A DNA stretch of 64,000 bases from Bacilli bacterium (GCA_036653735.1 JAVVTI010000001.1:8881-72880); one strand, 5' to 3'. Counted from the stretch's first letter, positions 3,147 to 55,722 are shown. The notes: generated from the sequence alone by a model not told the origin. Numbers and translations: made by a program.

Positions 3147-3485
3147 TCAGTTTGTTTTATTGTGTGGATTTGACCTAATATAATAAATTGCGATAATTTT
3201 AGTCGCTTTATTATCCTCACAATTTATTTCAGCATTTTCATATTTATATTTTATTCTTTTATGTTTAATTGAGTATTCTCCAAATAACATAATATCAGAA
3301 TATATAAAATCATCTTTAATATATTTATCTTTTCCTAATACTTTACCAATTAGAATTTCTTTTCCATTTTTATTAGTTGAAATAATTGGAACATCATAAA
3401 TCATATCGATTAAATTTTGGGGATTTTTTAATTCAATGTTAGAATTTTTTAATGGAATAATTTTCATATCTTTAAATATTTTCAT
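3147..3485 (-). CDS. Hypothetical protein
   Basis: 112-aa ORF at the distal end of the leftward block. Confidence 0.45.
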   Translation of the reverse strand: MKIFKDMKIIPLKNSNIELKNPQNLIDMIYDVPIISTNKNGKEILIGKVLGKDKYIKDDFIYSDIMLFGEYSIKHKRIKYKYENAEINCEDNKATKIIAIYYIRSNPHNKTN

Positions 3486-3566
3486 TTTATTATATCTCCT
3501 TTTAAATATGCCGATTTTTCACCATTTTTTGCTTAAAGTTATATAAAATAAGGGTTAGGGGATTTT

Positions 3567-3620
3567 GAAAGTAAAGATACTCCTTAATATGTACTTATAA
3601 TACAGAGTATCTTTACTTTC
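3567..3620. repeat. Palindromic element, copy A: 16-bp perfect stem, 22-nt conserved loop
   Basis: GAAAGTAAAGATACTC ... GAGTATCTTTACTTTC with loop cttaatatgtacttataataca. Core is about 39/40 identical to 15290-15328, including the loop. Confidence 0.7.
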
Positions 3621-3623
3621 AGA

Positions 3624-4616
3624 TTATTCAATGAATTGTTTGTGAATTAGACACAATATTAAATCTTCAACAAATCTTTCCCTTAAAGCTTGATTCATAC
3701 ATTCCAATTCTTTCGTTGTTAATAATTTATATTGCATATTTGAATTAACGAGTTTTTTGTTTTGTGATAAGATTCTTTTTGCTTCGTGTTTGATACCGTT
3801 TTCTCCATACTCAATATTCCATGCATTAGCATAAATTGGACAATTATATAATTCATCACAATCTTTTAATCTGTCGGACAAAACTTTAAAATAGTCGGTT
3901 CTTATTTCTTTTGATAAATAAATAATATCTTGCAATTTTTTAATGCCGTATTCTTTCATTGTTTTTTTGCGAATATCTAAAAAGATAGAACGTTGATGCT
4001 CATTACAGATATATTCTTTCTGTATATATTTTTTTAAGGTTTCGTTATATTCCATTTTATATAATTTGAATGTGTCGCTATATAAAATTAGGGAACGTTG
4101 CTTTAATGATTTCAATGCGTTGTTCACAATTTCTTTAATTATCTTATCTGTGACATTAAAGAAAATTCCTATGTCACGATATTTATCATTTTCTGAATCT
4201 TCTTTTGTGTAATAAGTAGTCGATTTTGTCGGGATATTATTAATATATTCCCATCTTTTATTATTCTTTGTTTCATAGTAAGTGTTATTGACCATATAGA
4301 AATATTTTGCCATTTCTGAATAAGTCATTGTAACTTTGTGTGTGTTATCTTTTGATAAATGTAAAATTAATAAATCTTCAATATACTCTGTAAATTTTGC
4401 CCTATGTTCTAAAAAAAGTAATTCCTTTTCGTCATATATATTTGTAATTGTTATTTTCCCATAAGACGGAATGATATTCATAAAATTATTTAATATTTTT
4501 AATTGAGCAGTTTTACTACCTTTTTCCAATATAGGTTCTTTTGTGATTTCGCAAAATTCCTCATAAGTTATTGTTTTACCTACATAATCTTGCAAATAGT
4601 TATATGGATTTATCAT
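3624..4616 (-). CDS. Hypothetical protein
   Basis: 330-aa ORF, no family recognised. Tightly packed with the downstream gene. Confidence 0.55.
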   Translation of the reverse strand: MINPYNYLQDYVGKTITYEEFCEITKEPILEKGSKTAQLKILNNFMNIIPSYGKITITNIYDEKELLFLEHRAKFTEYIEDLLILHLSKDNTHKVTMTYSEMAKYFYMVNNTYYETKNNKRWEYINNIPTKSTTYYTKEDSENDKYRDIGIFFNVTDKIIKEIVNNALKSLKQRSLILYSDTFKLYKMEYNETLKKYIQKEYICNEHQRSIFLDIRKKTMKEYGIKKLQDIIYLSKEIRTDYFKVLSDRLKDCDELYNCPIYANAWNIEYGENGIKHEAKRILSQNKKLVNSNMQYKLLTTKELECMNQALRERFVEDLILCLIHKQFIE

Positions 4617-7042: not shown

Positions 7043-7567
7043 TTATTTAATGTTTAAATTCAAATTTTCTTGCAATTTAACCCCATTAACTGTTTCTTCA
7101 CTATGCAATTTTAAATAATTTTTAATTTCTGTTTTCATTACATCAGTTTCTTTAATTTTTCTTGTTTTTATAAACTCACTAGGAACTTTTCCAATATCTG
7201 TAACTTCCACTGTAGAAGATTTTCGATAAGATAATTTACATCTGGCATCTTCAAATTTATATTTACCAATTTCTTTCGTGGTACTTTTTAAATAAGTGTC
7301 GAGATAATTTTTTAATCTTGCCGATTTATTTTCATTCACTTTCTGACGTTGTTCTAAAATTAATTTTTCTTGTTTGATTGCGGCTGCATCTGAATTTAAG
7401 TTTTTAATAAAACAAGCAATATTAGAAATTTTCTTATCTAATTCCATTTCAACTTCATCTAGCCGATTTTCTAATTCTTTTCCCTCTAATATTTCTCCGT
7501 CTTCTGTATCAAAGAATCCATCTACTAATGTTTCAAATCTTTCATCAATTTTATATAAGCTTGCCAT
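7043..7567 (-). CDS. Siphovirus Gp157-family protein
   Basis: N-terminal LYKIDERFETL, then IKQEKLILEQR ... RLKNYLDTYL ... KLSYRKSSTVEV. This matches my recollection of the Gp157 family pattern. Confidence 0.55.
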   Translation of the reverse strand: MASLYKIDERFETLVDGFFDTEDGEILEGKELENRLDEVEMELDKKISNIACFIKNLNSDAAAIKQEKLILEQRQKVNENKSARLKNYLDTYLKSTTKEIGKYKFEDARCKLSYRKSSTVEVTDIGKVPSEFIKTRKIKETDVMKTEIKNYLKLHSEETVNGVKLQENLNLNIK

Positions 7568-11519: not shown

Positions 11520-12221
11520 TTATTTATAAAATTTGTGACCTACGCTATCTGTGAAAATGTATTCTAAATTATTTTCATGCCATTCACTTTCATTACTATA
11601 AAAATAAGTTGCACCACTAGTAGTATCACCTAGTTTGAATACATATTCCAAAGCAAATTTAGTATCTTCGGATATTTCATCTCTAAAATATTCAAACTGA
11701 TTTTTTTCTGTAATTACAGAAATAGGATTATTTGGAAATGTATTATTATCAAGTCTGTTTAGTATAACAGATGCAATATTACATTTTGCGCTAAAATTAG
11801 TTTGGTATGTTTCGGTTTCTATACATTTTTGCATATATAATATTTCTAAATTTGAATAAGAATTATATAGTTCTTTTGTTTCTATTATGTTGTCATATTT
11901 TTCAGATAAACTATTGTATTTTTTCAAGTATTCTATTTTATCAAAATTTTTTAATGGTTCTATTAAAGTTTTTTCATATTCAATTTGTGAACTTATAATT
12001 TCTGTGTTTGTTTTATTTAACAATTCATTTACAGATAATAATGACATATTTTCGTTTTCTAAATCAATTCTGTTATTTTCTAATACCATAATATTATTTG
12101 ATAATTTATTATTTGTATTATTTATATTATTTAATTCATCTAATAAATTTTGACATTTACAAGAAAAAAGTAATACAATAGAAAATTCTATCAGTATAGT
12201 TATTTCTTTAACTCTTTTCAT
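11520..12221 (-). CDS. Exported SleB-like cell-wall hydrolase: signal / lipobox-like N-terminus, coiled coil, Hydrolase_2 C-domain
   Basis: C-terminal NIASVILNRLDNNTFPNNPISVITEKNQFEY ... GATYFY resembles the SleB / CwlJ hydrolase domain. N-terminal hydrophobic segment ending LLFSCKC. Confidence 0.55.
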   Translation of the reverse strand: MKRVKEITILIEFSIVLLFSCKCQNLLDELNNINNTNNKLSNNIMVLENNRIDLENENMSLLSVNELLNKTNTEIISSQIEYEKTLIEPLKNFDKIEYLKKYNSLSEKYDNIIETKELYNSYSNLEILYMQKCIETETYQTNFSAKCNIASVILNRLDNNTFPNNPISVITEKNQFEYFRDEISEDTKFALEYVFKLGDTTSGATYFYSNESEWHENNLEYIFTDSVGHKFYK

Positions 12222-14339: not shown

Positions 14340-14670
14340 GGCAGAATTAGGTTAGTAGGGAATGCTTACGGAATGGCTTACACCATTGCCTACACCATTG
14401 GGGGATTTTTGAGTATTTTTTATTCAAAATAATTAATAATTGATTGATATGTAAAAAGGATACATAATCATTTTCATATAGAGTATATAACTAATAAAAA
14501 ATGATTATGTATCCTTTTTACATTATGTGTATTATAATATAATATTATTAAAATTATATGGTATCATTTTATACAAGCTAATCATGTGTATTCAGAATCC
14601 CTTGACCTTAAAAATGGCGTAAGCCATTCAAATGCGTAAGCATTCTCTACTAACCCTACTAACCATTTTA
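14340..14670. repeat. Large imperfect palindrome (arms about 14350-14388 and 14601-14665) enclosing a perfect 25-bp inverted repeat, 14450-14474 / 14498-14522
   Basis: Inner IR TGTAAAAAGGATACATAATCATTTT matches its reverse complement AAAATGATTATGTATCCTTTTTACA exactly. Outer arms share GGTTAGTAGGG, AATGCTTACG and GAATGGCTTAC blocks. Confidence 0.7.
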
Positions 14671-14729
14671 CAATAATGAAAAATAGATTATATAGTATTT
14701 TTATATTATTATATATTATAATATATTAT

Positions 14730-15168
14730 TAAATAGTTATACTTAATAAATAGTTATATTTAATAATATATTATAACTAACTTATATACTTAATATAATA
14801 TATAATACTTGTAGTTTTAATTAAGTTCAAGTTCGCTGACGTAATAAAATAAATTATATGGGTATATCTCAATCCTGCTACGCAGTCTTTCGATATAAAC
14901 ACCCATATAATTTATTTTATTTTTGTCCTGAAATGTTTTTTCATTTTTATAAATAAGTACACTCAAATGCCACCTTACGGTGTCCTTTTCGTAGACGTAC
15001 TTATTTATAAAAATTAAAAAAATTCCAGTTTATTCCAGTTTATTATTATTATTATAATATATAGTTATATCTTATTATTATTATTATATGTTTATTATAA
15101 TATATTACATAGTTATATGAATTTATTTATTATTATAATAATATATAACTATTTAATATAACTATTTA
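14730..15168. repeat. Iteron-like 12-mer TAAATAGTTATA: two direct copies at 14730-14758, two inverted copies at 15144-15168, extra ATAGTTATA copies at 15061 and 15111. Region also holds 17-21-bp inverted repeats (14842-14920, 14944-15013) and tandem CCAGTTTATT x2
   Basis: Read directly from the sequence. The repeats flank palindromes in a 1.2-kb non-coding region between divergent operons. Confidence 0.6.
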
Positions 15169-16418: not shown

Positions 16419-19133
16419 TTGGGTAAATATGGACTAGAGATAAAGAATATTAAAGCTGGAACTTTATATGGATATAATAATGGTGTTAGAACGAGATATG
16501 AAAGTAACCGAGCAATGTTTAATAATAGCTTGTTTAATAATTATATTTGTAAAAATGGATTGAGTGTATATAAAGATAAATCAACTAGGGATATTATTTG
16601 TTTAGATTTTGATTTCGGCTCATTCTCTTACGAAGAAGAAAAAGATAGATTAGAAGAAAAATTAAATTATGCTGATGATGAATCTAAACAACGTATTATA
16701 GATTTATTAGAAAAGATTGATATAAACAAAGATAAATATATTAAAAAGTCAAAAGAAGAAATTCGAGATGATTATTACGAAAATGGTGTGACAATAAGAT
16801 ATCAACAAAAAGACAAATTGGAAAATATTGTAAAAGAAGATGATATTGATTATAAAATGTTATATCGTAGTCCTGCTAAGGCAAAATTAGGGCAAGCAAT
16901 TTTTATTAATAAAAAATTATATAATAAGGCTTATAATTGGCTTACTATGGGATTAGGAAATAAAATGCCAAAGGATAATGCAAAAATTGTGGAAATGTCG
17001 GCATATGCACCTTTAACAACTAGTACCATTGTTGATACAATTCATATTCCGATTGAAGATATTGTAATATTAAAAGACCAAGAATCAATATTCAAAACTT
17101 TAGCGAATGTTGTAAAAGCTGAAATTGTAAATGGTAATAAAAAATGTGTTGTGGCGAAAGAAGAAACAAGTGTTGTAAATACAATGTGGGACGGAATGGC
17201 TTTGATTGAAGAATCTTATATTCCAAAAAATATTGAAATGAATGGAATGCTTTTAGTTCGTAATCATTTTTTTAAGTCATGTGGAGTTAAGTCTAAAATA
17301 CAATTATTCTTAAGAGATTGGTGTCGCAATAATAACATTGATTTTGATACATTTGAAATTGAGGATATGTTCGGAATTAAACATAAGGCAAAAGATATTA
17401 AAATGGTTACCACGGATAATTCAATTAAGTGGAAAAAGTTTTCTAATTTAATGGGAAATAATGATTTAGAAGCATATCAGTATTGGTGTAATAAAATTAA
17501 CGAGGACGGAAGTATTTTTGGAATTGTTAAAACAGACCATTCAAGTAAAATGGGGAATAGTCAACAAATGAGTTATCAGATGGTTAATACTTTGCCTTGC
17601 ACATTTGAAGAAGTCGGTGATATTGCCAAACAAAGTATTGATTATGTGGAATTAATTAAATCAGATGATGATGAATTTGAAAAGTTTCTTAGAGATAATA
17701 AAAACGAAATCAACCACTATGAAATGTTAGCAGATTTATATAAGCAAAATAAATTATTTGCAAAATGTGAATGGTTCAGAGTTGAAAAAAAGAAAATAAT
17801 TTTTGCTTACGTGGAAAGGTTAAGAAAAGGGAAAATATTTGTAAGAGGGGATAATTTAACAATTTTTGGGAATCCATATGGTTTGTTATTACATTGTGTC
17901 GGGGAAAATTATGAAAATGATAAAACTTTACAACAAGAAAATGATTGTATACAGTGTTATACTAAACAGTTTAAAGATGGTGAATATTTAAGTGCATTTA
18001 GAAATCCACATAATTCCCCTAATAATATTGCCTATTTACATAATGTTTATTCTGATGAAATGGAAAAATATTTTTCTTTCAGTGATAATATTATAGCTGT
18101 AAATTGTATCCATACGGATATACAAGATAGGGCAAACTCAATGGATTTTGATAGTGATTTTATGTTTGTTACGAACCAAAAAACAACAGTAAAATGTGCA
18201 AAGGAGTGCTATAAAGATTATCCAACTATTGTAAATGCTTTAAAAGAAAGTGGTGTGACTTATCATAATACTAAAAAATCTTATTCAGATATGGATAATA
18301 AATTTTCAAATTCTAGGATAGGAATAGGAGTTTCAAGTAATCAGGCACAATTGGCATTAACTTATTATTGGACTGAATTAAGCAAACAAAACCCAAATAA
18401 AGAAATTTTGAAAGAGTTAAACGATAATTTTGTAATTTTGTCAGTTTTAGCACAAGTGATTATTGATGGGTGTAAAAGAGAATATGAAATTGATGCATTA
18501 AAAGAAATTGAAAGAATACAAAATATGAGATGTATGCAGATTAAAAAAACTACAAAATTAAAATGCGGAAAATCAAAAACGATAAATTATAATTTACCAA
18601 ACTTTATGAAATACACGAAAGAAATTAAATATACAAAAAATGGAAAAGATATCGAGATAGAAAAAATTCAATCTGATAAAAAGAGGATAACCGATAGAAT
18701 AAATCCTAGTTTAATATGTCCTATGAATTATTTAGAAAAACATTTGGATTCAATTAAGCAGATGGATAAAACAGATTGTTTAGAAACGAAAGATTTTTTT
18801 ATTAAAATGAGTGGTGATGGGAATAGGAGACAAATATCAAATATAGTGCGTTTAATAAATGAATATGATAGTGCTACAAAACACCTTATTATTTCCGATA
18901 AAATGATTGAAGGAGAAATAGTCGGGAAAACGGAAGAATTAATTAACGAGGTTTCTAAAATAAAAATAGGGAATATTATTACTATTAATAGATTAATTGA
19001 AACCGCTTTAAATTTAGAATTAAAAAATAATAGTGGCAAAAATAACTCAAAGTATTGCCGAAAATTATTGAACATTTTATACCGAACAAACAAAGAAAAG
19101 TTCTTAATTTGTTTTAAAATAGGCGAAAATTGA
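16419..19133 (+). CDS. Large (904 aa) protein of unknown function with DxD (ICLDFDFGS) and DFDSD motifs
   Basis: Long uninterrupted ORF with an RBS. No family recognised with confidence. Confidence 0.6.
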   Translation: MGKYGLEIKNIKAGTLYGYNNGVRTRYESNRAMFNNSLFNNYICKNGLSVYKDKSTRDIICLDFDFGSFSYEEEKDRLEEKLNYADDESKQRIIDLLEKIDINKDKYIKKSKEEIRDDYYENGVTIRYQQKDKLENIVKEDDIDYKMLYRSPAKAKLGQAIFINKKLYNKAYNWLTMGLGNKMPKDNAKIVEMSAYAPLTTSTIVDTIHIPIEDIVILKDQESIFKTLANVVKAEIVNGNKKCVVAKEETSVVNTMWDGMALIEESYIPKNIEMNGMLLVRNHFFKSCGVKSKIQLFLRDWCRNNNIDFDTFEIEDMFGIKHKAKDIKMVTTDNSIKWKKFSNLMGNNDLEAYQYWCNKINEDGSIFGIVKTDHSSKMGNSQQMSYQMVNTLPCTFEEVGDIAKQSIDYVELIKSDDDEFEKFLRDNKNEINHYEMLADLYKQNKLFAKCEWFRVEKKKIIFAYVERLRKGKIFVRGDNLTIFGNPYGLLLHCVGENYENDKTLQQENDCIQCYTKQFKDGEYLSAFRNPHNSPNNIAYLHNVYSDEMEKYFSFSDNIIAVNCIHTDIQDRANSMDFDSDFMFVTNQKTTVKCAKECYKDYPTIVNALKESGVTYHNTKKSYSDMDNKFSNSRIGIGVSSNQAQLALTYYWTELSKQNPNKEILKELNDNFVILSVLAQVIIDGCKREYEIDALKEIERIQNMRCMQIKKTTKLKCGKSKTINYNLPNFMKYTKEIKYTKNGKDIEIEKIQSDKKRITDRINPSLICPMNYLEKHLDSIKQMDKTDCLETKDFFIKMSGDGNRRQISNIVRLINEYDSATKHLIISDKMIEGEIVGKTEELINEVSKIKIGNIITINRLIETALNLELKNNSGKNNSKYCRKLLNILYRTNKEKFLICFKIGEN

Positions 19134-19364: not shown

Positions 19365-19766
19365 TTGGCAAGACCAAGTTATGATAGAAGAAATAGAAAG
19401 CAAACACAAGAGTTGATTGGTGAAAGAGATTTATATCGTGCGATTAAACAACATAAAGAAGTCGCAGACTATAATCTTACCATGGAACAAATTAGAGGTG
19501 TTTTTAGAGCATATGCCGACATTGTACATAGAGGTTTAATTAATAGTATTAGAATTACTTTACCATATATGGGAGAATTTTTCAAAGCAAAGCAAGAAGG
19601 ATTTAAAGGTGGTATGATAAAAATTCCAGATAAAGGAATGGAGTTTAAAAAAGGGTGTACATTTCATGAAGAATATTTTCCACCAACACCAGATTATGGC
19701 ATTATGAGATTTGAAGTAAGAAAATCTTTACAAGAAAAATTTAAAGAGGAAACGGTATTTAAATAA
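19365..19766 (+). CDS. HU / IHF-like DNA-binding domain protein (TTG start)
   Basis: LTMEQIRGVFRAYADIVHRGLINSIRITLPYMGEF resembles the HU-fold helix-arm region. Confidence 0.35.
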   Translation: MARPSYDRRNRKQTQELIGERDLYRAIKQHKEVADYNLTMEQIRGVFRAYADIVHRGLINSIRITLPYMGEFFKAKQEGFKGGMIKIPDKGMEFKKGCTFHEEYFPPTPDYGIMRFEVRKSLQEKFKEETVFK

Positions 19767-20455
19767 TGGGAAAAGCAATGTCTGATAAAGATTTTAATGA
19801 TATTATTGCTATTAAATGTGGAATATCTTCTATTACAGTAAAAAGAGTATGGAATAATATAAAAAAATTAATTGTATCAGAGTTACAAAATAACTCGTAC
19901 ATAAGAATAGAAAATTTTGGAAAATTTGAACTTATTAAAAAAGGAGGGAAAGATGAATGGTTTGAAAATCAGATGGGAATACAAGAACAGCGCTATGTTG
20001 AGCCATTTGATTTTGTAGAGTTTAGTCCAAGTGCAAATTTTATAAACTCTGTAAATAATGGACTTGTTGATTCATGGTCTAAATATAGATTTGAAAATGA
20101 TGAATTAACTACTTATGATAAAATTTTATTAGATATAGAAACAGACCTCACTGTAGATGAAGTATTATTTGATTTATTAAATAAGAAAAAAAAAAGACAA
20201 ATAAAAGAAGCTACTAGGAATAAACTTTATCAACAAGGGCAAAATTTAGGAAAAACAGAATTGACAAAAGGTAAACCGATTAGATGTGTTACGAATGGAG
20301 TTGAATATAAATCTGTTTATAGTGCATCTCAAGCTTTAAATATTAGAGCGATTAAAATGTATCAAAATTTTAATAAAGGTATTTTTTTAATAGATGGGTA
20401 TGAGTTTGAATTTATCAATGAAATAGAGGAGAAAAATAGTAATGACGAATTGTGA
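19766..20455 (+). CDS. HU-like N-terminal domain protein with a C-terminal extension
   Basis: DIIAIKCGISSITVKRVWNNIKKLIVSELQNNSYIRIENFGKFEL is HU-like. Translationally coupled to the previous gene. Confidence 0.35.
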   Translation: MGKAMSDKDFNDIIAIKCGISSITVKRVWNNIKKLIVSELQNNSYIRIENFGKFELIKKGGKDEWFENQMGIQEQRYVEPFDFVEFSPSANFINSVNNGLVDSWSKYRFENDELTTYDKILLDIETDLTVDEVLFDLLNKKKKRQIKEATRNKLYQQGQNLGKTELTKGKPIRCVTNGVEYKSVYSASQALNIRAIKMYQNFNKGIFLIDGYEFEFINEIEEKNSNDEL

Positions 20456-20769: not shown

Positions 20770-22390
20770 GCCTATATAAGAAAGAGTTACCAAAACATTA
20801 TTGGACAGAGAATACTTTCTTTACAGATGGATATTTTGTATTAACAATTGGAGAAGTAAGTAGTAAAATGTTGAAAAGTATATAGAAAATCAAGGATAAA
20901 AGAGAAAATTAATAGCTAGGAAGGAAGTGATTGCAGATGCTAATAGCATATAAATACAGATTATATCCAAATAAGTCTCAACAAGAATATTTCTCAAAGT
21001 GTTTCGGTTGTGTGCGTTTCATCTATAATCATATGCTTTCAGATAAGATTGACTATTATAAAGAAACAAAACAAAAACTCAATAACACACCTGCTCAATA
21101 TAAAAAGGATTTTGAGTGGTTAAAAGAAGTAGATTCTCTCGCTCTTGCAAATACACAGATGAATTTACAAACTGCTTATAATAATTTCTTCAAACGTCCA
21201 GATGTGGGATTTCCGAAATTTAAAAGTAAGAAGAATAATCATTTGTCTTACACTACGAATAATCAAGGTGGGAATATCTATGTTTCAGACAGGTACATAA
21301 AACTTCCTAAAATTGGATTAGTTAAAGTTAAGAAACACAGAGATTTCAATGGTATTATCAAGTCTGTAACTGTTTCTAAGAATCCATCTGGTAAATATTT
21401 TGTATCAGTTCTAGTAGACCAAGAAGAAAAAGTGAAACTGCCTACTACTGATTCTAAAATTGGAATTGATTTAGGAATTAAAGAGTTCTGCATAACCTCC
21501 AATGGAGAAATGATTAAGAACCAAAAGTATCTTCGTAAATCTGAAAAGAGATTAAGTAAGTCGCAAAAGGATTTGTCTCGTGCAGTAAAAGGAAGTAATA
21601 ACAGAAATAAAGCAAGAATTAAAATTGCTAAAAAGCACGAAAAGATTGTGAATCAACGCAAAGATTTCTTAAACAAATTGTCTATAAGTATGATTCGTGA
21701 GAACCAAACAATTGCCTTAGAGACATTAAAAGTTAAGAATATGATGAGTAATCATAAACTAGCAAAATCTATAGCAGATGTATCTTGGAGTGAGTTTGTT
21801 CGGCAATTAGAGTACAAATCTAAATGGTATGGGCGAGAAATCGTAAAAATTGATACATGGTATCCAAGTTCACAAATTTGTTCTAACTGTGGGCATAAAG
21901 ATGGGAAAAAAGCATTGTCGATTAGAGAATGGACTTGCTCTAAATGTGGCACACATCACGAAAGAGATATAAACGCTGCAATAAATATATTAAACGAAGG
22001 ACTAAGGCAACTTATAGACTAAGGAGTAAGTAAGAAGTGTTGGAGCAACACGGATAGCCTGTGTAAACTTGTGCAGTTATGCATATTGAGCAGGAAACAA
22101 GCAAGTCTTTAGCTTGGTTGCGGTTCACATTAAATATTTCAGCCCTAATTGGTTAAAGGTTAAACCCAATGGTTATTGAATAGCACTTATCCACAATTAA
22201 AATAAATAGTGCTATAAACCACACGTTTTTACAGTATTGTGTGTTAAAAAATTAAAATTTACTGTTTGATTAAGTCTTTTACTGATGACAAAGGAAGAGT
22301 GAGATATCAATCCTAGTAAAATGATGGGATAGGATATCAAGATTTGTGGAGTTGGCTAAAGGATAAGTACCAATTGTCAAAAATCCTTAT
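20770..22390 (+). mobile_element. TnpB-only (IS1341-like) insertion element; boundaries approximate; structured right-end / omega-RNA region at 22023-22390
   Basis: TnpB ORF. A 370-bp GC-richer non-coding right end. The 9-mer GTCTTTAGC occurs near both flanks (20763, 22089). A 44-aa ORF (20627-20761) ends abruptly at the left flank. Confidence 0.4.
20931..22022 (+). CDS. tnpB: IS200/IS605-family accessory protein TnpB (OrfB, RuvC-like plus Zn finger)
   Basis: N-terminal [15 protein letters not shown] ..., a central RuvC-like region, and C-terminal CSNCGH ... CSKCG Zn finger. 363 aa. No tnpA adjacent. Confidence 0.9.
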
Positions 22391-22392
22391 AA

Positions 22393-22463
22393 TGGGAATT
22401 AGTATAATGGTAGTACACCACCTTTTGACGGTGATAGTAGCGGTTCAAATCCACTATTCCTAG
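22393..22463 (+). tRNA. tRNA-Gln-like, anticodon TTG (71 nt)
   Basis: Manual fold: acceptor TGGGAAT / ATTCCTA; D-arm GTAT-AATGGTA-GTAC; anticodon stem CCACC / GGTGA; loop TTTTGAC; T-arm AGCGG-TTCAAAT-CCACT. A few mismatches remain. Confidence 0.5.
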
Positions 22464-22488
22464 CTAAATAAAAGAAAGGACAAATAAT

Positions 22489-36825: not shown

Positions 36826-37230
36826 ATGAGAAAGGTGTCTATGGGAAATTGTAAATTTTCATATACTAAAAAAGAGGTAATTACGAAAAGAGAATATTTA
36901 TATTGCTCAAAAAATGACAAAATTTGTCCTTATGTAAGATTTTGTAATGATTTGAACAAAATTGTAAATGTTAATAATTATAAAATTTGTAAAGACTTTA
37001 ATATAATGGATATTCCATTAGGTAAAAATAAAGTAAGGTTTATAAAAAATGAAAAATTGATTGTAGAATTATATGACAAAACAGGAAATGTATTATCGTG
37101 TGTTGAAGTTGATAATCCATTTAATAAATTTATCAAATATGTTGAATTAATTGAGTTGAACGGTATATATTATGTAAAAGGATATGAACCAAAAGTTTCT
37201 ATTAAAAAAAAGAGAGGAGTAATTGAATAA
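36826..37230 (+). CDS. Hypothetical protein
   Basis: 134 aa, Cys-containing N-terminus. Confidence 0.4.
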   Translation: MRKVSMGNCKFSYTKKEVITKREYLYCSKNDKICPYVRFCNDLNKIVNVNNYKICKDFNIMDIPLGKNKVRFIKNEKLIVELYDKTGNVLSCVEVDNPFNKFIKYVELIELNGIYYVKGYEPKVSIKKKRGVIE

Positions 37231-51888: not shown

Positions 51889-53349
51889 ATGCCGACGCAA
51901 TTAGAATATAATGTTACCAAACAGAAGTTTAGGGAAATATATGCTAAAATATATCTTTTAGGTACTTCTGAACAAATAGTTGATGAACTAAGTGGGGTAG
52001 TTATAGGTGAACCTAGTTTTTCGGTTGATGCGGATAGTGACATAAGAAGAACTTTAAACATTTCCTTATATCCAAAAGATAGTAGTTTTGATGTAAAAAA
52101 AGGTAATAAAATATGGTTAGATAAAGCCATTGATGTTAGATTAGGGATTAAAGATATACAAACAGGAGAAATTGCATGGACTAGAATGGGTATATATATG
52201 GTCAATAATCCTACAAGAATATATAGTTCAACAGATAATACTATTACTTTAGATTGTGTTGACTTAATGGCAAATCTAAACGGTATAAGGAATGGACAAT
52301 TAGAATATAGTCCGTATGTTATTAAACAAGGCGAAAATATAGCAAGTGTCATTGAAAATGTTTATAGAAACTATGGGTTTTTTCTTTTTGCAAAATCTGA
52401 TATATCTGAATGTATGGTATATTCTGACACAGAAGGTAAAAATATAATCTTAAATACACCTAATGAAATAAGAGTGGGAGGAAACAGTACCGCTTATGAT
52501 ATTTTAAAAGAATTAAGGGATATAATGCCTAATTATCAAATGTATTTTGATATAGATGGTACATTCCGATATAATTTAATTCCAAATGGCACTGATGAAA
52601 CTGCTATGATTGATGATGATATTTGGGAAAAATGCCTTATTGATTATAACGTCTTTAATGATTTTTCGGAAGTGGCTAATTCAGTAATAGTCTATGGAGG
52701 AGTTTGTAATGATTTTATTTATATAGAAAAATATAGTATAGTTGGTGATGTTTGTAATTTAATTTTACCATTTCCAGTAGAACAATTGTTAACAGGACAA
52801 AGATTATTATTAAACCTTTCCTTTCCTACCGGACAAGAAACAGTAATTAAAACTATAAGTATTGGTACAAGAGCATATCCTTTAAGAGATATTTATAAAA
52901 ACAATTATGCTTTTTTTAAAAATGGGGAAGGATATATTATAGAATACAATTTCGATTTTTTCTTGTTTATGGGAAAAATTATTCCTATGGCAGTATTACA
53001 TGAAACAAATCCAGATAGTCCATTTTATGTTGATGATTATAATACCCCAATAATTAGAAAGGTTTTTCAAGGTGGCGAATATAATAATATTCATATAGAT
53101 GCGTTAGCAATGGAAAGAGCAAAATTTGAATTATATACGCATTGTAGATTACAAGATACGGTTACTTTGACTTGTATACCTATATATTGGTTAGATGTAA
53201 ATTGGGTAATAGAATTAACTCTTCCTAACAAACAAGGTATAACGGAAACAAATAAATATATTATAAAAAAAATAAATACTAGCGGTGGAATAAACGGAAC
53301 CCAAACAATTACACTTATGAGATATTATCCATTTTACCCGCCAATTTAA
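51889..53349 (+). CDS. Tail / baseplate protein
   Basis: 486 aa. Confidence 0.45.
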   Translation: MPTQLEYNVTKQKFREIYAKIYLLGTSEQIVDELSGVVIGEPSFSVDADSDIRRTLNISLYPKDSSFDVKKGNKIWLDKAIDVRLGIKDIQTGEIAWTRMGIYMVNNPTRIYSSTDNTITLDCVDLMANLNGIRNGQLEYSPYVIKQGENIASVIENVYRNYGFFLFAKSDISECMVYSDTEGKNIILNTPNEIRVGGNSTAYDILKELRDIMPNYQMYFDIDGTFRYNLIPNGTDETAMIDDDIWEKCLIDYNVFNDFSEVANSVIVYGGVCNDFIYIEKYSIVGDVCNLILPFPVEQLLTGQRLLLNLSFPTGQETVIKTISIGTRAYPLRDIYKNNYAFFKNGEGYIIEYNFDFFLFMGKIIPMAVLHETNPDSPFYVDDYNTPIIRKVFQGGEYNNIHIDALAMERAKFELYTHCRLQDTVTLTCIPIYWLDVNWVIELTLPNKQGITETNKYIIKKINTSGGINGTQTITLMRYYPFYPPI

Positions 53350-53372
53350 CATATAAGAAGGAGAAAATAAAA

Positions 53373-53849
53373 ATGGCAACAGTATTATTTAAAAGAAAAA
53401 CAGCTGCGGAAGTAGCTTCTTTACCAGTTGAAGATGGTAGTGTTATTTTTAATACAACAGATAAAAGTATCTTGATGGATAACGGAACTCAAAGAGAAAG
53501 ATATGCAGGAGGTAATCTTAGTACCACAGATATCGTAAATACATTAGCAGAAGCAATTACAGTAACTTCACCAACTGTTCCAGTCGGGTGCGGAGTTATC
53601 AAGTCGTTAAATACAGATTTAACGAACAAACCGAATATTATTTATGAAACCGTCAGAGCCACTTTAACAGGTGATTACTGTTTTGTAAGAAAAGAAGGAT
53701 ATGCATTATTAGCAGCATATGTAATTAGAAATGACTCTGGTTTTTTTGTAAAAGGTATTCAAAAACAATCAGCTGATTGGTTATATACTATTTTAATAGA
53801 AAATGGAAAAGGTGGGGATATTGCCTTATATCTCATATGGACTAAATAA
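53373..53849 (+). CDS. Small tail-tip / host-specificity protein. Residues 1-77 are constant, SLNTDLTNK is the crossover motif, and cassette 1 forms the C-terminus.
   Basis: 158 aa. The internal LNTDLTNK is encoded by the 27-bp site that is repeated, inverted, at the N-termini of two downstream minus-strand ORFs. Confidence 0.45.
   Translation: MATVLFKRKTAAEVASLPVEDGSVIFNTTDKSILMDNGTQRERYAGGNLSTTDIVNTLAEAITVTSPTVPVGCGVIKSLNTDLTNKPNIIYETVRATLTGDYCFVRKEGYALLAAYVIRNDSGFFVKGIQKQSADWLYTILIENGKGGDIALYLIWTK
53605..53631 (+). repeat. Putative inversion crossover site, copy 1 (27 bp, contains dyad TTAAAT-acag-ATTTAA)
   Basis: CGTTAAATACAGATTTAACGAACAAAC. Its exact reverse complement lies at 54145-54171. 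A 19-bp core recurs at 54489-54507. Confidence 0.8.
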
Positions 53850-53875
53850 TTTATTAAATTTTAATATAAGAGCAT

Positions 53876-54184
53876 TTATTGGTCTAAAAGACATGTGAAC
53901 CTAACTTGAAATCCACTATATGAAGCTGGACTATCTTTCGCAACTAATAATTGCTTATCATTAACGTTAATCTGAATAAATTTTGAAAGAGTTCTCATAT
54001 CACTCCATACATCTTTATTTAATTGTATTTGAGCCGACAATAAATATGGAATTTTCCCTGATAATATTGTAGGTAAATTAAATATTTGTAGAGTAGAGGT
54101 ATTGTCTAAGATACCATTGAATTTTATGATATCATTCCTATTCAGTTTGTTCGTTAAATCTGTATTTAACGTTTTAACAGACAA
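53876..54184 (-). CDS. Alternative C-terminal cassette 2 (inverted orientation; TTG start in its current context)
   Basis: Starts M-SVK-TLNTDLTNK, then a unique 90-aa tail. The shared site is at its 5' end. Confidence 0.45.
   Translation of the reverse strand: MSVKTLNTDLTNKLNRNDIIKFNGILDNTSTLQIFNLPTILSGKIPYLLSAQIQLNKDVWSDMRTLSKFIQINVNDKQLLVAKDSPASYSGFQVRFTCLLDQ
54145..54171 (-). repeat. Putative inversion crossover site, copy 2 (perfect inverted copy of 53605-53631)
   Basis: 27/27 identity in inverted orientation. Confidence 0.8.
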
Positions 54185-54195
54185 TCTATATAATA

Positions 54196-54519
54196 TTATT
54201 TAAGTTGCCAACTTGTTATCACTGTTCCATCTGTTTTTTGCGCCATTGTATAAAATTGTCCATTTACAAGTGTTAAGATTTTAATAATATGACCATGGAT
54301 ATATCGGATTGTTTCTAAATATCCTACATAGTTAGAAATGGGTAGTCCGATTTCAGTTCCTTTTATATTATATATCCCAAAGGTATAACAGCCATATATC
54401 ACATTACTATCTGCATCACCAAGTAAGCGTAAGGCAGAACCATTTTCATTATGTACAGAATTAAGAACGTTTATTTTTGAAGTATTGCTCGTTAAATCTG
54501 TATTTAATGAACTAAACAA
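54196..54519 (-). CDS. Alternative C-terminal cassette 3 (inverted orientation)
   Basis: Starts MFS-SLNTDLTSN, then a unique tail. Shared 19-23-bp site at its 5' end. Confidence 0.45.
   Translation of the reverse strand: MFSSLNTDLTSNTSKINVLNSVHNENGSALRLLGDADSNVIYGCYTFGIYNIKGTEIGLPISNYVGYLETIRYIHGHIIKILTLVNGQFYTMAQKTDGTVITSWQLK
54485..54507 (-). repeat. Putative inversion crossover site, copy 3 (19-bp identical core, 22/23 with the flank)
   Basis: TTGCTCGTTAAATCTGTATTTAA on the + strand. Core TCGTTAAATCTGTATTTAA is identical to copy 2. Confidence 0.75.
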
Positions 54520-54560
54520 ACATTCTTATAAACGAACAAATTTAAAAAGGAGAAATAAAT

Positions 54561-54824
54561 ATGAATTTAGAAATTTTAGCTAGTTATATTATTCCAATGG
54601 TAACCGCAGATTGTTTAATCATAGGTTATCTTATTAAAAAGTCATTAGATTTTATACCAAACAAATATATACCGCTTATTTTAGCTATATTTGGAGCAAT
54701 TATAAACTGTATACTAAATAGTTCAATAGATGTTAATTTAGTGGCTTGTGGCGCATTTAGTGGTCTTGCAAGCACAGGATTACATCAAGCTTTTACTAAA
54801 ATCATAGAAAGAGAAGAGGTTTAA
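54561..54824 (+). CDS. Holin
   Basis: 87 aa with two hydrophobic segments and a charged C-terminus (KIIEREEV). Immediately upstream of the endolysin. Confidence 0.55.
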   Translation: MNLEILASYIIPMVTADCLIIGYLIKKSLDFIPNKYIPLILAIFGAIINCILNSSIDVNLVACGAFSGLASTGLHQAFTKIIEREEV

Positions 54825-54828
54825 TATT

Positions 54829-55722
54829 ATGGGAAGAAATATATCAGAATTACACCCTGTTTTACAAACAAGATTAGAACAATTAAAAGAAATATGCAAT
54901 CAGCAAGGTTTAAATATAGGAATAGGAGAATGTTTCCGCACAGTGGCGGAACAGGACGCACTATATGCACAAGGACGTACAACGCAAGGGAAGAAAGTAA
55001 CTAACGCAAAAGGAAGTACCTATAGTTCACAACACCAGTGGGGAATCGCTTTTGACTTTTTTGAAAACGTTAAAGGACATGAATTTGAAAATATTTCATT
55101 TTTCAACCAAGTAGGAAATATCGCAAAGGATATTGGATTAGGTTGGGGGGGTGATTGGAAAAATCCAGTAGATAAACCGCACTTGTATCTTTCTGATTGG
55201 GGAAATACCACAAGTCAATTAAAAACACAGTACGGAACAATAGACACATTTAGGAATACTTGGAATAATAATCCAACAAAAGAAGAAATATCACAAGACC
55301 AAAATATTGGAATAAGTATAAATGAAACAATAAAAAATGGGCAAATTCATTCTAACAATTTTGCTAATTGTAATATCAAAGCAGATGGGATTTATGGAAA
55401 TCAGACTAAAAAAGCAGGTATTAAAGTATTACAACAAGGTCTTAATTTAGACTATAATTCTAATATTGCAGTAGACGGTATTTTTGGAAATGGAACACGT
55501 AATTCTTTAGGTAATCATAGTGTCAGATATGGTGAAAAGCAGTACATGGTTACCACACTTGAGATTTTGCTTATGCTGAAAGGATATAATCCTAACGGCG
55601 TAGAGTGCCCTGGTGTGTTCGGTAGAGGGTTAGAATCAACCGTGAGAAGATATCAATCAGCCCATGGACTTTCAGCAGATGGAATTGCAGGCGTAAATAC
55701 TTTCAAATCTTTAATTGAATAA
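54829..55722 (+). CDS. Endolysin: peptidase M15 (VanY / L-Ala-D-Glu peptidase-like) plus two PG_binding_1 repeats
   Basis: SQHQWGIAFDF and VDKPHLY are M15 Zn-binding motifs. C-terminal DGIYGNQTKKAGIKVLQQ and ADGIAGVNTFKSL are PG-binding repeats. Confidence 0.8.
   Translation: MGRNISELHPVLQTRLEQLKEICNQQGLNIGIGECFRTVAEQDALYAQGRTTQGKKVTNAKGSTYSSQHQWGIAFDFFENVKGHEFENISFFNQVGNIAKDIGLGWGGDWKNPVDKPHLYLSDWGNTTSQLKTQYGTIDTFRNTWNNNPTKEEISQDQNIGISINETIKNGQIHSNNFANCNIKADGIYGNQTKKAGIKVLQQGLNLDYNSNIAVDGIFGNGTRNSLGNHSVRYGEKQYMVTTLEILLMLKGYNPNGVECPGVFGRGLESTVRRYQSAHGLSADGIAGVNTFKSLIE

Follow-up and report, generated by a model that had tools for sequence, protein, structure and literature searches.

We analysed a 64-kb stretch of DNA (hereafter the window) from a 92,864-bp source contig of 28% GC, which belongs to an uncultured phage of about 93 kb from a low-GC gut bacterium, and we describe here a short locus at which this phage carries the tip of a small tail fibre in three versions, one expressed and two silent and inverted (Table 1). 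The fibre gene, which is preceded by tail and baseplate genes as an earlier note on this DNA had placed it, consists of a constant 5' part with its own start signals, a repeated sequence (inverted repeat 1, IR1) and an expressed 3' cassette that we call A. Two further cassettes, B and C, lie on the opposite strand, each headed by another copy of the repeat (IR2 and IR3). Flanked by the fibre gene on one side and the holin and endolysin genes on the other, they are convergent with the late operon in which they sit, and they are the only coding candidates within this 710-nucleotide (nt) stretch. Neither B nor C has a Shine-Dalgarno sequence or an ATG; the only starts that can be assigned mechanically are TTG codons 4-5 codons upstream of the repeat, and from these the frames are open over 102 and 107 codons, respectively. 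No terminator-like site was found within 53000-55000.

Table 1. Features of the fibre-tip locus and adjoining genes, in window coordinates (ORF, open reading frame; RBS, ribosome-binding site; aa, amino acids)
Feature	Position	Strand	Remarks
DUF5048 protein, PHROG 'tail protein'	51889-53349		baseplate/tail genes, followed by the fibre gene
Fibre / receptor-binding gene	53373-53849	+	158 aa
Constant 5' part of fibre gene (aa 1-77)	53373..53604	+	strong RBS AAGGAG, ATG start
IR1, proposed crossover site	53605-53637	+	codons 78-87; encodes S-LNTDLTNK; dyad 53605-53624
Cassette A, currently expressed	53632..53849	+	72-aa C-terminal tail and stop codon
Cassette B, silent, inverted	53876..54144	-	89-aa tail; ORF 53876-54184
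IR2, reverse complement of IR1	54139-54171	-	5' end of ORF 53876-54184; dyad 54152-54171
Cassette C, silent, inverted	54196..54484	-	95-aa tail; ORF 54196-54519
IR3, diverged copy	54485-54510	-	5' end of ORF 54196-54519
Possible remnant half-site	54531-54545	+	AACGAACAAATTTAA; 10 nt identical to the IR1 cassette-side flank; 20 nt outside IR3
Holin	54561-54824	+	right after the cassettes; AAGGAG and ATG
M15 / peptidoglycan-binding endolysin	54829-55722	+	after the holin

The three repeats are copies of one sequence. IR1 and IR2 pair as reverse complements over 33 nt at 97% identity (1 mismatch), of which 27 nt are exact (53605-53631 / 54145-54171), and this 27/27 match bears out the 27-bp repeat that the earlier note had seen in the fibre gene and, reverse-complemented, at the head of ORF 53876-54184. 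IR1 and IR3 pair over 26 nt at 92% identity (53604-53629 / 54485-54510), with 19 nt exact (53607-53625 / 54489-54507), in agreement with the 19-23-bp version reported at the head of ORF 54196-54519. Nowhere else in the window do two sequences within 2 kb of each other form so long an exact inverted repeat as IR1 and IR2 do, and in 30 windows simulated under a Markov-1 model the longest inverted repeat measured 14-19 nt, as against 27 nt in the real one. When an 18-mer core was searched for with at most 3 mismatches, it occurred at 3 places in the 64 kb, all three of them IR1-IR3, where chance would give 0.48. All three copies are read in one common frame, TTA AAT ACA GAT TTA ACG, so that LNTDLT is encoded in frame at each site, as had been claimed. 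The dyad symmetry of the core was likewise recovered, and it proved longer than first described: an 8-4-8 arrangement, CGTTAAAT-ACAG-ATTTAACG, in IR1 and IR2, and CATTAAAT-ACAG-ATTTAACG in IR3, whose left arm is CATTAAAT, with the inner core TTAAAT-ACAG-ATTTAA and its spacer identical in 3/3 sites. The same note had spoken of three unrelated tails of about 90 amino acids behind these sites, which holds for B (89) and C (95) and fails for A (72).

Outside the dyad, conservation of the sites is one-sided, with AACAAAC.GAATA shared on the cassette side and the outer flanks unrelated. One site is in forward and two are in reverse orientation, which is the minimum number allowing multi-step shuffling, and IR2 and IR3 form direct repeats in the present arrangement. 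The match of the half-site AACGAACAAATTTAA beyond IR3 is near chance level and carries no weight in our argument.

The codons used within the sites are unusual for this genome. Rare codons recur in the copies (Thr-ACG accounts for 7.3% of Thr codons, Ser-TCG for 3.5% of Ser codons and Asn-AAC for 16% of Asn codons), and an ACG codon is present in 3/3 copies. The CG that stands before TTAAAT and completes the left arm of the dyad forms part of a TCG (Ser) codon in IR1 and of an ACG (Thr) codon in IR2, so that the bases were kept while the residue changed. Given the same peptide, the probability of drawing the same 8 codons was 0.0015 for the second copy, and that of drawing the same 6 codons was 0.0105 for the third. 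Because the rare codons and the CG have been kept across copies despite the Ser/Thr change, we conclude from this codon pattern that the constraint on the site acts on the DNA, beyond what the peptide alone would impose.

We then asked what B and C encode. The AlphaFold model of cassette B (predicted local distance difference test score, pLDDT, of 84) comprises a neck helix and a 7-strand beta-sandwich, and the homologues of B, 45-48% identical to it, make up the C-terminal ends of fibre proteins that have 4 different N-terminal scaffolds. Upstream of the B-like domain, each of these scaffolds carries L(N/S)TNLGNKFDK or LNTNLNLK. An exhaustive HMMER search returned 48 homologues of C, and in all of the longer ones the C-like domain occupies the extreme C-terminus, after Phage_fiber_rpt-type motifs. 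Two proteins, P0005 with a B-like tail and P0009 with a C-like tail, have one N-terminal scaffold in common, so that elsewhere, too, the two kinds of domain serve as alternative tips. Both cassettes keep the conserved residues of their families, and gene callers annotated both as genes in one NCBI metagenome-assembled genome (MAG). As judged by these homologies, B and C are real fibre-tip domains. For cassette A the protein collection search gave no homologues, and the AlphaFold model of the constant part joined to A was discarded as unusable on account of its low confidence (pLDDT 49).

Three short ORFs found in the course of this comparison (P0020, P0026 and P0038) have a C-like tip domain preceded by YNN(S/D)L and nonsense-looking N-termini; they may be silent cassettes of another site family, one contig, of 501 nt, having been examined.

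Among GenBank phages, IMG/VR and GTDB genomes, the lineage of the phage has no close relatives. In GenBank phages, tblastn queries with the fibre, B and C yielded no useful match, blastn gave matches to Enterocloster phages alone, all distant and in the baseplate gene, and queries of IMG/VR, GTDB genomes and JGI metagenomes with the fibre, the constant-domain alignment and the B alignment returned no close relatives and some distant ones lacking the cassettes. Besides the window fibre, only 3 proteins in the protein collection search share the constant domain (P0002-P0004, at 49-78% identity), and all three carry other tails. Two of the three were found in separate samples of a single study, on contigs L005 and L006, which are 100% identical over 461 nt and then pass into unrelated tails right after IKELN. 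Their site, TTAAAC-AGTA-GTTTAA, shows a compensating change in the arms relative to the TTAAAT-ACAG-ATTTAA of the window. We take the pair, on this alignment, as evidence for exchange at the junction only. The 3' end of L005 (795-909; ENA contig NODE_98841, ERZ12298788) is Illumina adapter sequence (AGATCGGAAGAGCGTCGTGTAGGGAAAGAGTGT...), an artefact.

Exchange of tips at the corresponding junction was also seen in other phages. In the P0005 family, 5 fibres in public data (P0005, P0057, P0059-P0061) have N-termini that are 84-93% identical, followed directly after LNTNL by 5 unrelated tails. The small temperate phage lineage in which these tails were seen, and whose inverted repeat encodes LNTNL, reproduces the layout of the window: at 10001-10964 of contig L035 (Logan ERR13245399), a fibre gene, one inverted cassette that starts at an inverted repeat (core TAAACACGAATTT), a holin gene and a lysin gene follow one another, and no recombinase is visible other than an integrase 3.4 kb beyond. 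In its relative L028 (286-972) the inverted repeat is 29 nt long (core GCTAAACACGAATTTA) and a cassette downstream is likewise inverted; the cores in L035 and L028 measure 13-16 nt. An unrelated phage (L027 1-6900, Logan SRR10605906) carries what appears to be a complete multi-cassette tail-fibre shufflon, with at least 6 sites in both orientations (core AAAATGAGAAT), an expressed fibre gene at 3314-3952 (- strand) and at least 5 alternative tip cassettes spread on either side of a gene (1234-2247) for a 337-aa Xer-like tyrosine recombinase (XerA model 229.7 bits; Phage_integrase 5.6e-36). One of these cassettes, P0006, is B-like and 48% identical to B of the window. The expressed L027 site, CTAAAT-GAGA-ATTTAG-GC, and the L028 site, CTAAAC-ACGA-ATTTAG-GC, differ almost only in the spacer, and all phages compared share the site design YWAAAY-N4-RTTTRR, which the window arms TTAAAT and ATTTAA fit.

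We propose that the locus is probably a three-cassette, shufflon-type DNA-inversion switch for the C-terminal tip of a small tail fibre or receptor-binding protein. The late operon would express the constant part (aa 1-77) fused to whichever cassette stands downstream of IR1, at present A, to give the 158-aa protein, while B and C would lie inverted without promoter, RBS or ATG, each beginning with the site, whose translation (LNTDLT) would form a short neck helix. Recombination between IR1 and IR2 would invert 53.6-54.17 kb and create an in-frame fusion of the constant part with B (175 aa), and recombination between IR1 and IR3 would invert 53.6-54.51 kb and create one with C (181 aa); after either event A would become a silent cassette and receptor specificity would change. 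The direct-repeat arrangement of IR2 and IR3 requires that deletion between these two sites be disfavoured, as in other shufflons. We predict that the enzyme would be an Xer-like, 'armless' tyrosine recombinase acting on the arms YTAAAY/RTTTAR around a short spacer, and that its gene would lie outside the window, either elsewhere on the source contig, in its remaining ~25 kb, or in the host. Such an enzyme is more likely than a serine invertase of the Min/Gin type because of the one-sided conservation of the sites, the arm design shared with L027 and the published Rin system. That inversion occurs in this phage is what we infer from the architecture and from its relatives.

The inversion switch put forward in the earlier note thus stands in its architecture, a constant 5' part with one expressed and two inverted, start-less, in-frame cassettes, and was not matched by an inverted state or a recombinase; several observations weigh against it. 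All 6 of the assemblies that span the segment (the source contig, the second NCBI MAG contig L033 at 99.84% identity, and the Logan contigs L001-L004) are colinear with the window and have A in the expressed position, the inverted arrangement being seen in 0/6, and fusions of the constant part to B or to C are absent from the 5.8-billion-cluster protein collection. Because the samples are adjacent runs (SRR258203xx) that are probably not independent, and because assemblies report the majority state only, the uniform A orientation is weak negative evidence. Nor can L005 and L006 serve as two states of one switch: they differ by an extra 21 nt before a shared 16-mer, which does not fit a single crossover at that 16-mer and which a single inversion there fails to explain. 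IR3 has diverged, its dyad carrying 1 mismatch and its flank several. Finally, LNT(N/D)L is a common hinge motif of fibres in Bacillota phages, and the similarity of sites between phages could therefore come partly from coding constraint; for the same reason the remark that the LNTDLT cassette family had not been recognised from described Clostridium-like phages needs qualifying.

Neither family of recombinase turned up in the 64 kb of the window or in about 4 kb of flanks (~3 kb on the left from contig L008 and 1.2 kb on the right from contig L029), ~25 kb of the source contig being unseen. This search, which upholds the earlier statement that no invertase or Rci-like recombinase is encoded in the window, combined Pfam scans of all window ORFs of at least 120 aa with six-frame phmmer searches of the window, L008 and L029, in which Gin, Hin, XerD and the L027 recombinase served as queries. 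With these queries and the Pfam scans, no serine recombinase was detected in the window or the flanks reached, and no Xer-like or armless tyrosine recombinase was detected in the window. The proposed analogy to Min and Gin serine invertases found no support; L027, the only comparator with a visible recombinase, has an Xer-like tyrosine enzyme, and so has the published Rin shufflon (PMC6109161). A stretch at 37223-37555 that weakly matched the L027 recombinase in phmmer (E = 0.0077) was rejected, its catalytic HxxR / H / Y positions being unmatched, and the TnpB gene at 20931-22022, which is the one transposase-like gene present, was rejected as a recombinase because TnpB is an RNA-guided nuclease, here without its TnpA partner. 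Two Logan contigs from different runs (L003 and L034) end inside the IR2 dyad, at 54152 and 54156, 3 nt apart and reaching it from opposite sides, which is unlikely by chance; the 27-nt exact repeat is shorter than k=31. We did not accept these ends as evidence of inversion, because they do not match the branch points of a k=31 graph for either IR1xIR2 inversion or IR2xIR3 deletion.

If the recombinase was lost or was never carried, the array might be a fossil, built by inversion and then frozen with A expressed and with B and C as silent passengers, and the missing recombinase, the single orientation in every segment-spanning assembly and the partial divergence of IR3 would all be consistent with this. 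However, IR1 and IR2 are still identical at 27/27 positions, rare codons included, and B and C have remained open over their 102 and 107 codons at 28% GC with family residues kept, whereas unexpressed, start-less cassettes should decay; the ~25 kb of genome and the whole host, in which a recombinase gene could reside, lie outside the sequence examined. We regard a fossil as unlikely. Rare inversions could also arise with no dedicated enzyme at all, through general or phage homologous recombination of the single-strand annealing type acting on the 27-nt inverted homology. Recombination driven by homology needs about 27 nt of exact identity at the least, the cassettes have no invertase gene beside them, and the window encodes a Sipho_Gp157 protein (7043-7567), of a family often found within phage recombination modules. 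Such a route seems quite improbable to us, because homologous exchange would be inefficient over lengths as short as the 19 nt of IR3 or the 13-16 nt of the L035 and L028 cores, the site has the form of a dyad around an asymmetric spacer, like recombinase sites, and its arm design is common to L027, which has a dedicated tyrosine recombinase.

That there is no switch at all, B and C being either small minus-strand genes in their own right or what past horizontal replacement of modules left behind, and the repeat only reflecting the conserved LNTDL at the head of paralogous domains, would agree with the wide occurrence of the LNT(N/D)L hinge motif and with the fact that gene callers annotated both cassettes in one NCBI MAG. 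We find this explanation hard to credit: B and C lack a Shine-Dalgarno sequence, and their TTG starts, 4-5 codons ahead of the site, are assigned mechanically; their direction is convergent with that of the late operon; conservation of the DNA takes in flanking bases of the repeat whether synonymous or not; and the B-like and C-like domains of the homologues are C-terminal parts of fibres, not free proteins.

Phage fibre-tip inversion switches are already well known from Mu (G), P1 (C), p15B (Min), bifidophages (Rin) and BV01, and the proposed switch resembles and departs from each of them in different ways. As in the Mu G, P1 C and p15B Min segments, the invertible segment leaves out the constant part of the fibre gene and contains the alternative 3' parts, with the crossover placed inside coding sequence; with p15B Min it further shares multiple sites and cassettes. 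Gin, Cin and Min have an adjacent serine invertase, sites of ~26 bp with a 2-bp crossover, and a Fis-dependent enhancer. The hosts of those systems are Proteobacteria. In the window no serine recombinase was found, and we know of no resemblance of its site to gix or hix, no formal comparison having been run. The shufflon of R64 and other IncI plasmids (Rci, pilV) is similar in its multi-cassette inversion of an adhesin C-terminus and in the one-sided conservation of its sites, the R64 sites being asymmetric and having a conserved arm at just one side. It differs in serving the tip adhesin of a plasmid pilus and not a phage fibre, in having rci adjacent and in its unrelated site sequences. L027 comes closer, with a B-like tip cassette, sites in an SLNxxL hinge, arms of the form YWAAAT-N4-ATTTNN and cassettes in both orientations, but it has at least 6 sites, a recombinase gene inside the locus, a GAGA spacer in place of ACAG, and another constant domain.

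The Rin shufflon of Bifidobacterium prophages is inverted by a tyrosine invertase for which an Xer-like armless type was proposed (Mavrich et al. 2018, PMC6109161). Like the window locus, Rin operates in a Gram-positive phage, on a receptor-binding protein with a constant N-terminus and variable C-terminal cassettes in both orientations, at short repeated sites. In contrast, the rin gene flanks its cassettes and the rix sites are asymmetric, of 11 bp (TTCCCTAACCC), while the window has no recombinase nearby, a 20-nt dyad with a one-sided extension, and unrelated proteins. A second inverted locus in bifidophages, with an 8-bp repeat and no flanking recombinase, led to the suggestion of an invertase acting in trans (PMC6109161). 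In a BV01-like Phocaeicola phage shufflon, all configurations were present in the read data (PMC13596623); this gut phage is similar in its three non-homologous cassettes and its short directional motifs with extensions of 14-18 bp (PMC13596623), and it differs in its flanking recombinase, its Bacteroidota host and its demonstrated activity, the proposed switch in the window being deduced from sequence. A survey of programmed inversions across bacteria found tail-fibre genes to be significantly enriched among the targets (PMC9881135).

More speculatively, and with considerable doubt, we suggest that the ~93-kb phage, the L035/L028 lineage and the L005/L006 phages might belong to one family of fibre-tip switches across unrelated Bacillota phages, with the site in the LNT(N/D)L neck, no adjacent invertase and a recombinase supplied in trans. 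Candidates for such a recombinase would be an Xer-like enzyme of the host, the phage's own integrase or a distant phage gene, and the shared hinge site could act as a universal docking point for the exchange of tip cassettes between phages. Comparison of the loci points to a crossover site that is built into a conserved hinge of the fibre and can be reused, and at least 2 lineages without a cassette-adjacent invertase bear on phase variation by trans recombinases, a question raised but left unsettled in PMC6109161. If the switch is active, one large phage of an uncultured low-GC gut bacterium would present three receptor-binding tips, a form of bet-hedging against variable host surfaces, and would add a Bacillota example to the short list of Mu, P1, p15B, bifidophage Rin and BV01. 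For annotation, it suggests that small, reversed 'hypothetical' ORFs between fibre and holin genes can be silent receptor-binding cassettes.

Some other features of the window were noted in passing. The TnpB mentioned above is a solo, full-length member of the IS200/IS605 family on the plus strand (NCBIfam NF038281, 506 bits), with no adjacent TnpA; an HU-like gene (19766-20455) lies upstream of it, and a tRNA-Gln(UUG) gene (22393-22464, + strand) lies 370 nt downstream. At 14449-15014, exact hairpin-type inverted repeats of 26, 21, 20 and 18 nt with spacers of 20-40 nt are clustered in a gene-poor gap between a minus-strand early block, which ends at 12221, and a plus-strand block, which starts at 16419; this cluster could be a replication origin or a regulatory region. 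In the structural module, the open stretch at 37223-37555 is in the same frame as an ORF at 37559-38584 (+ strand), with one stop codon between them, and the two may be adjacent genes or may mark a read-through or recoding site.

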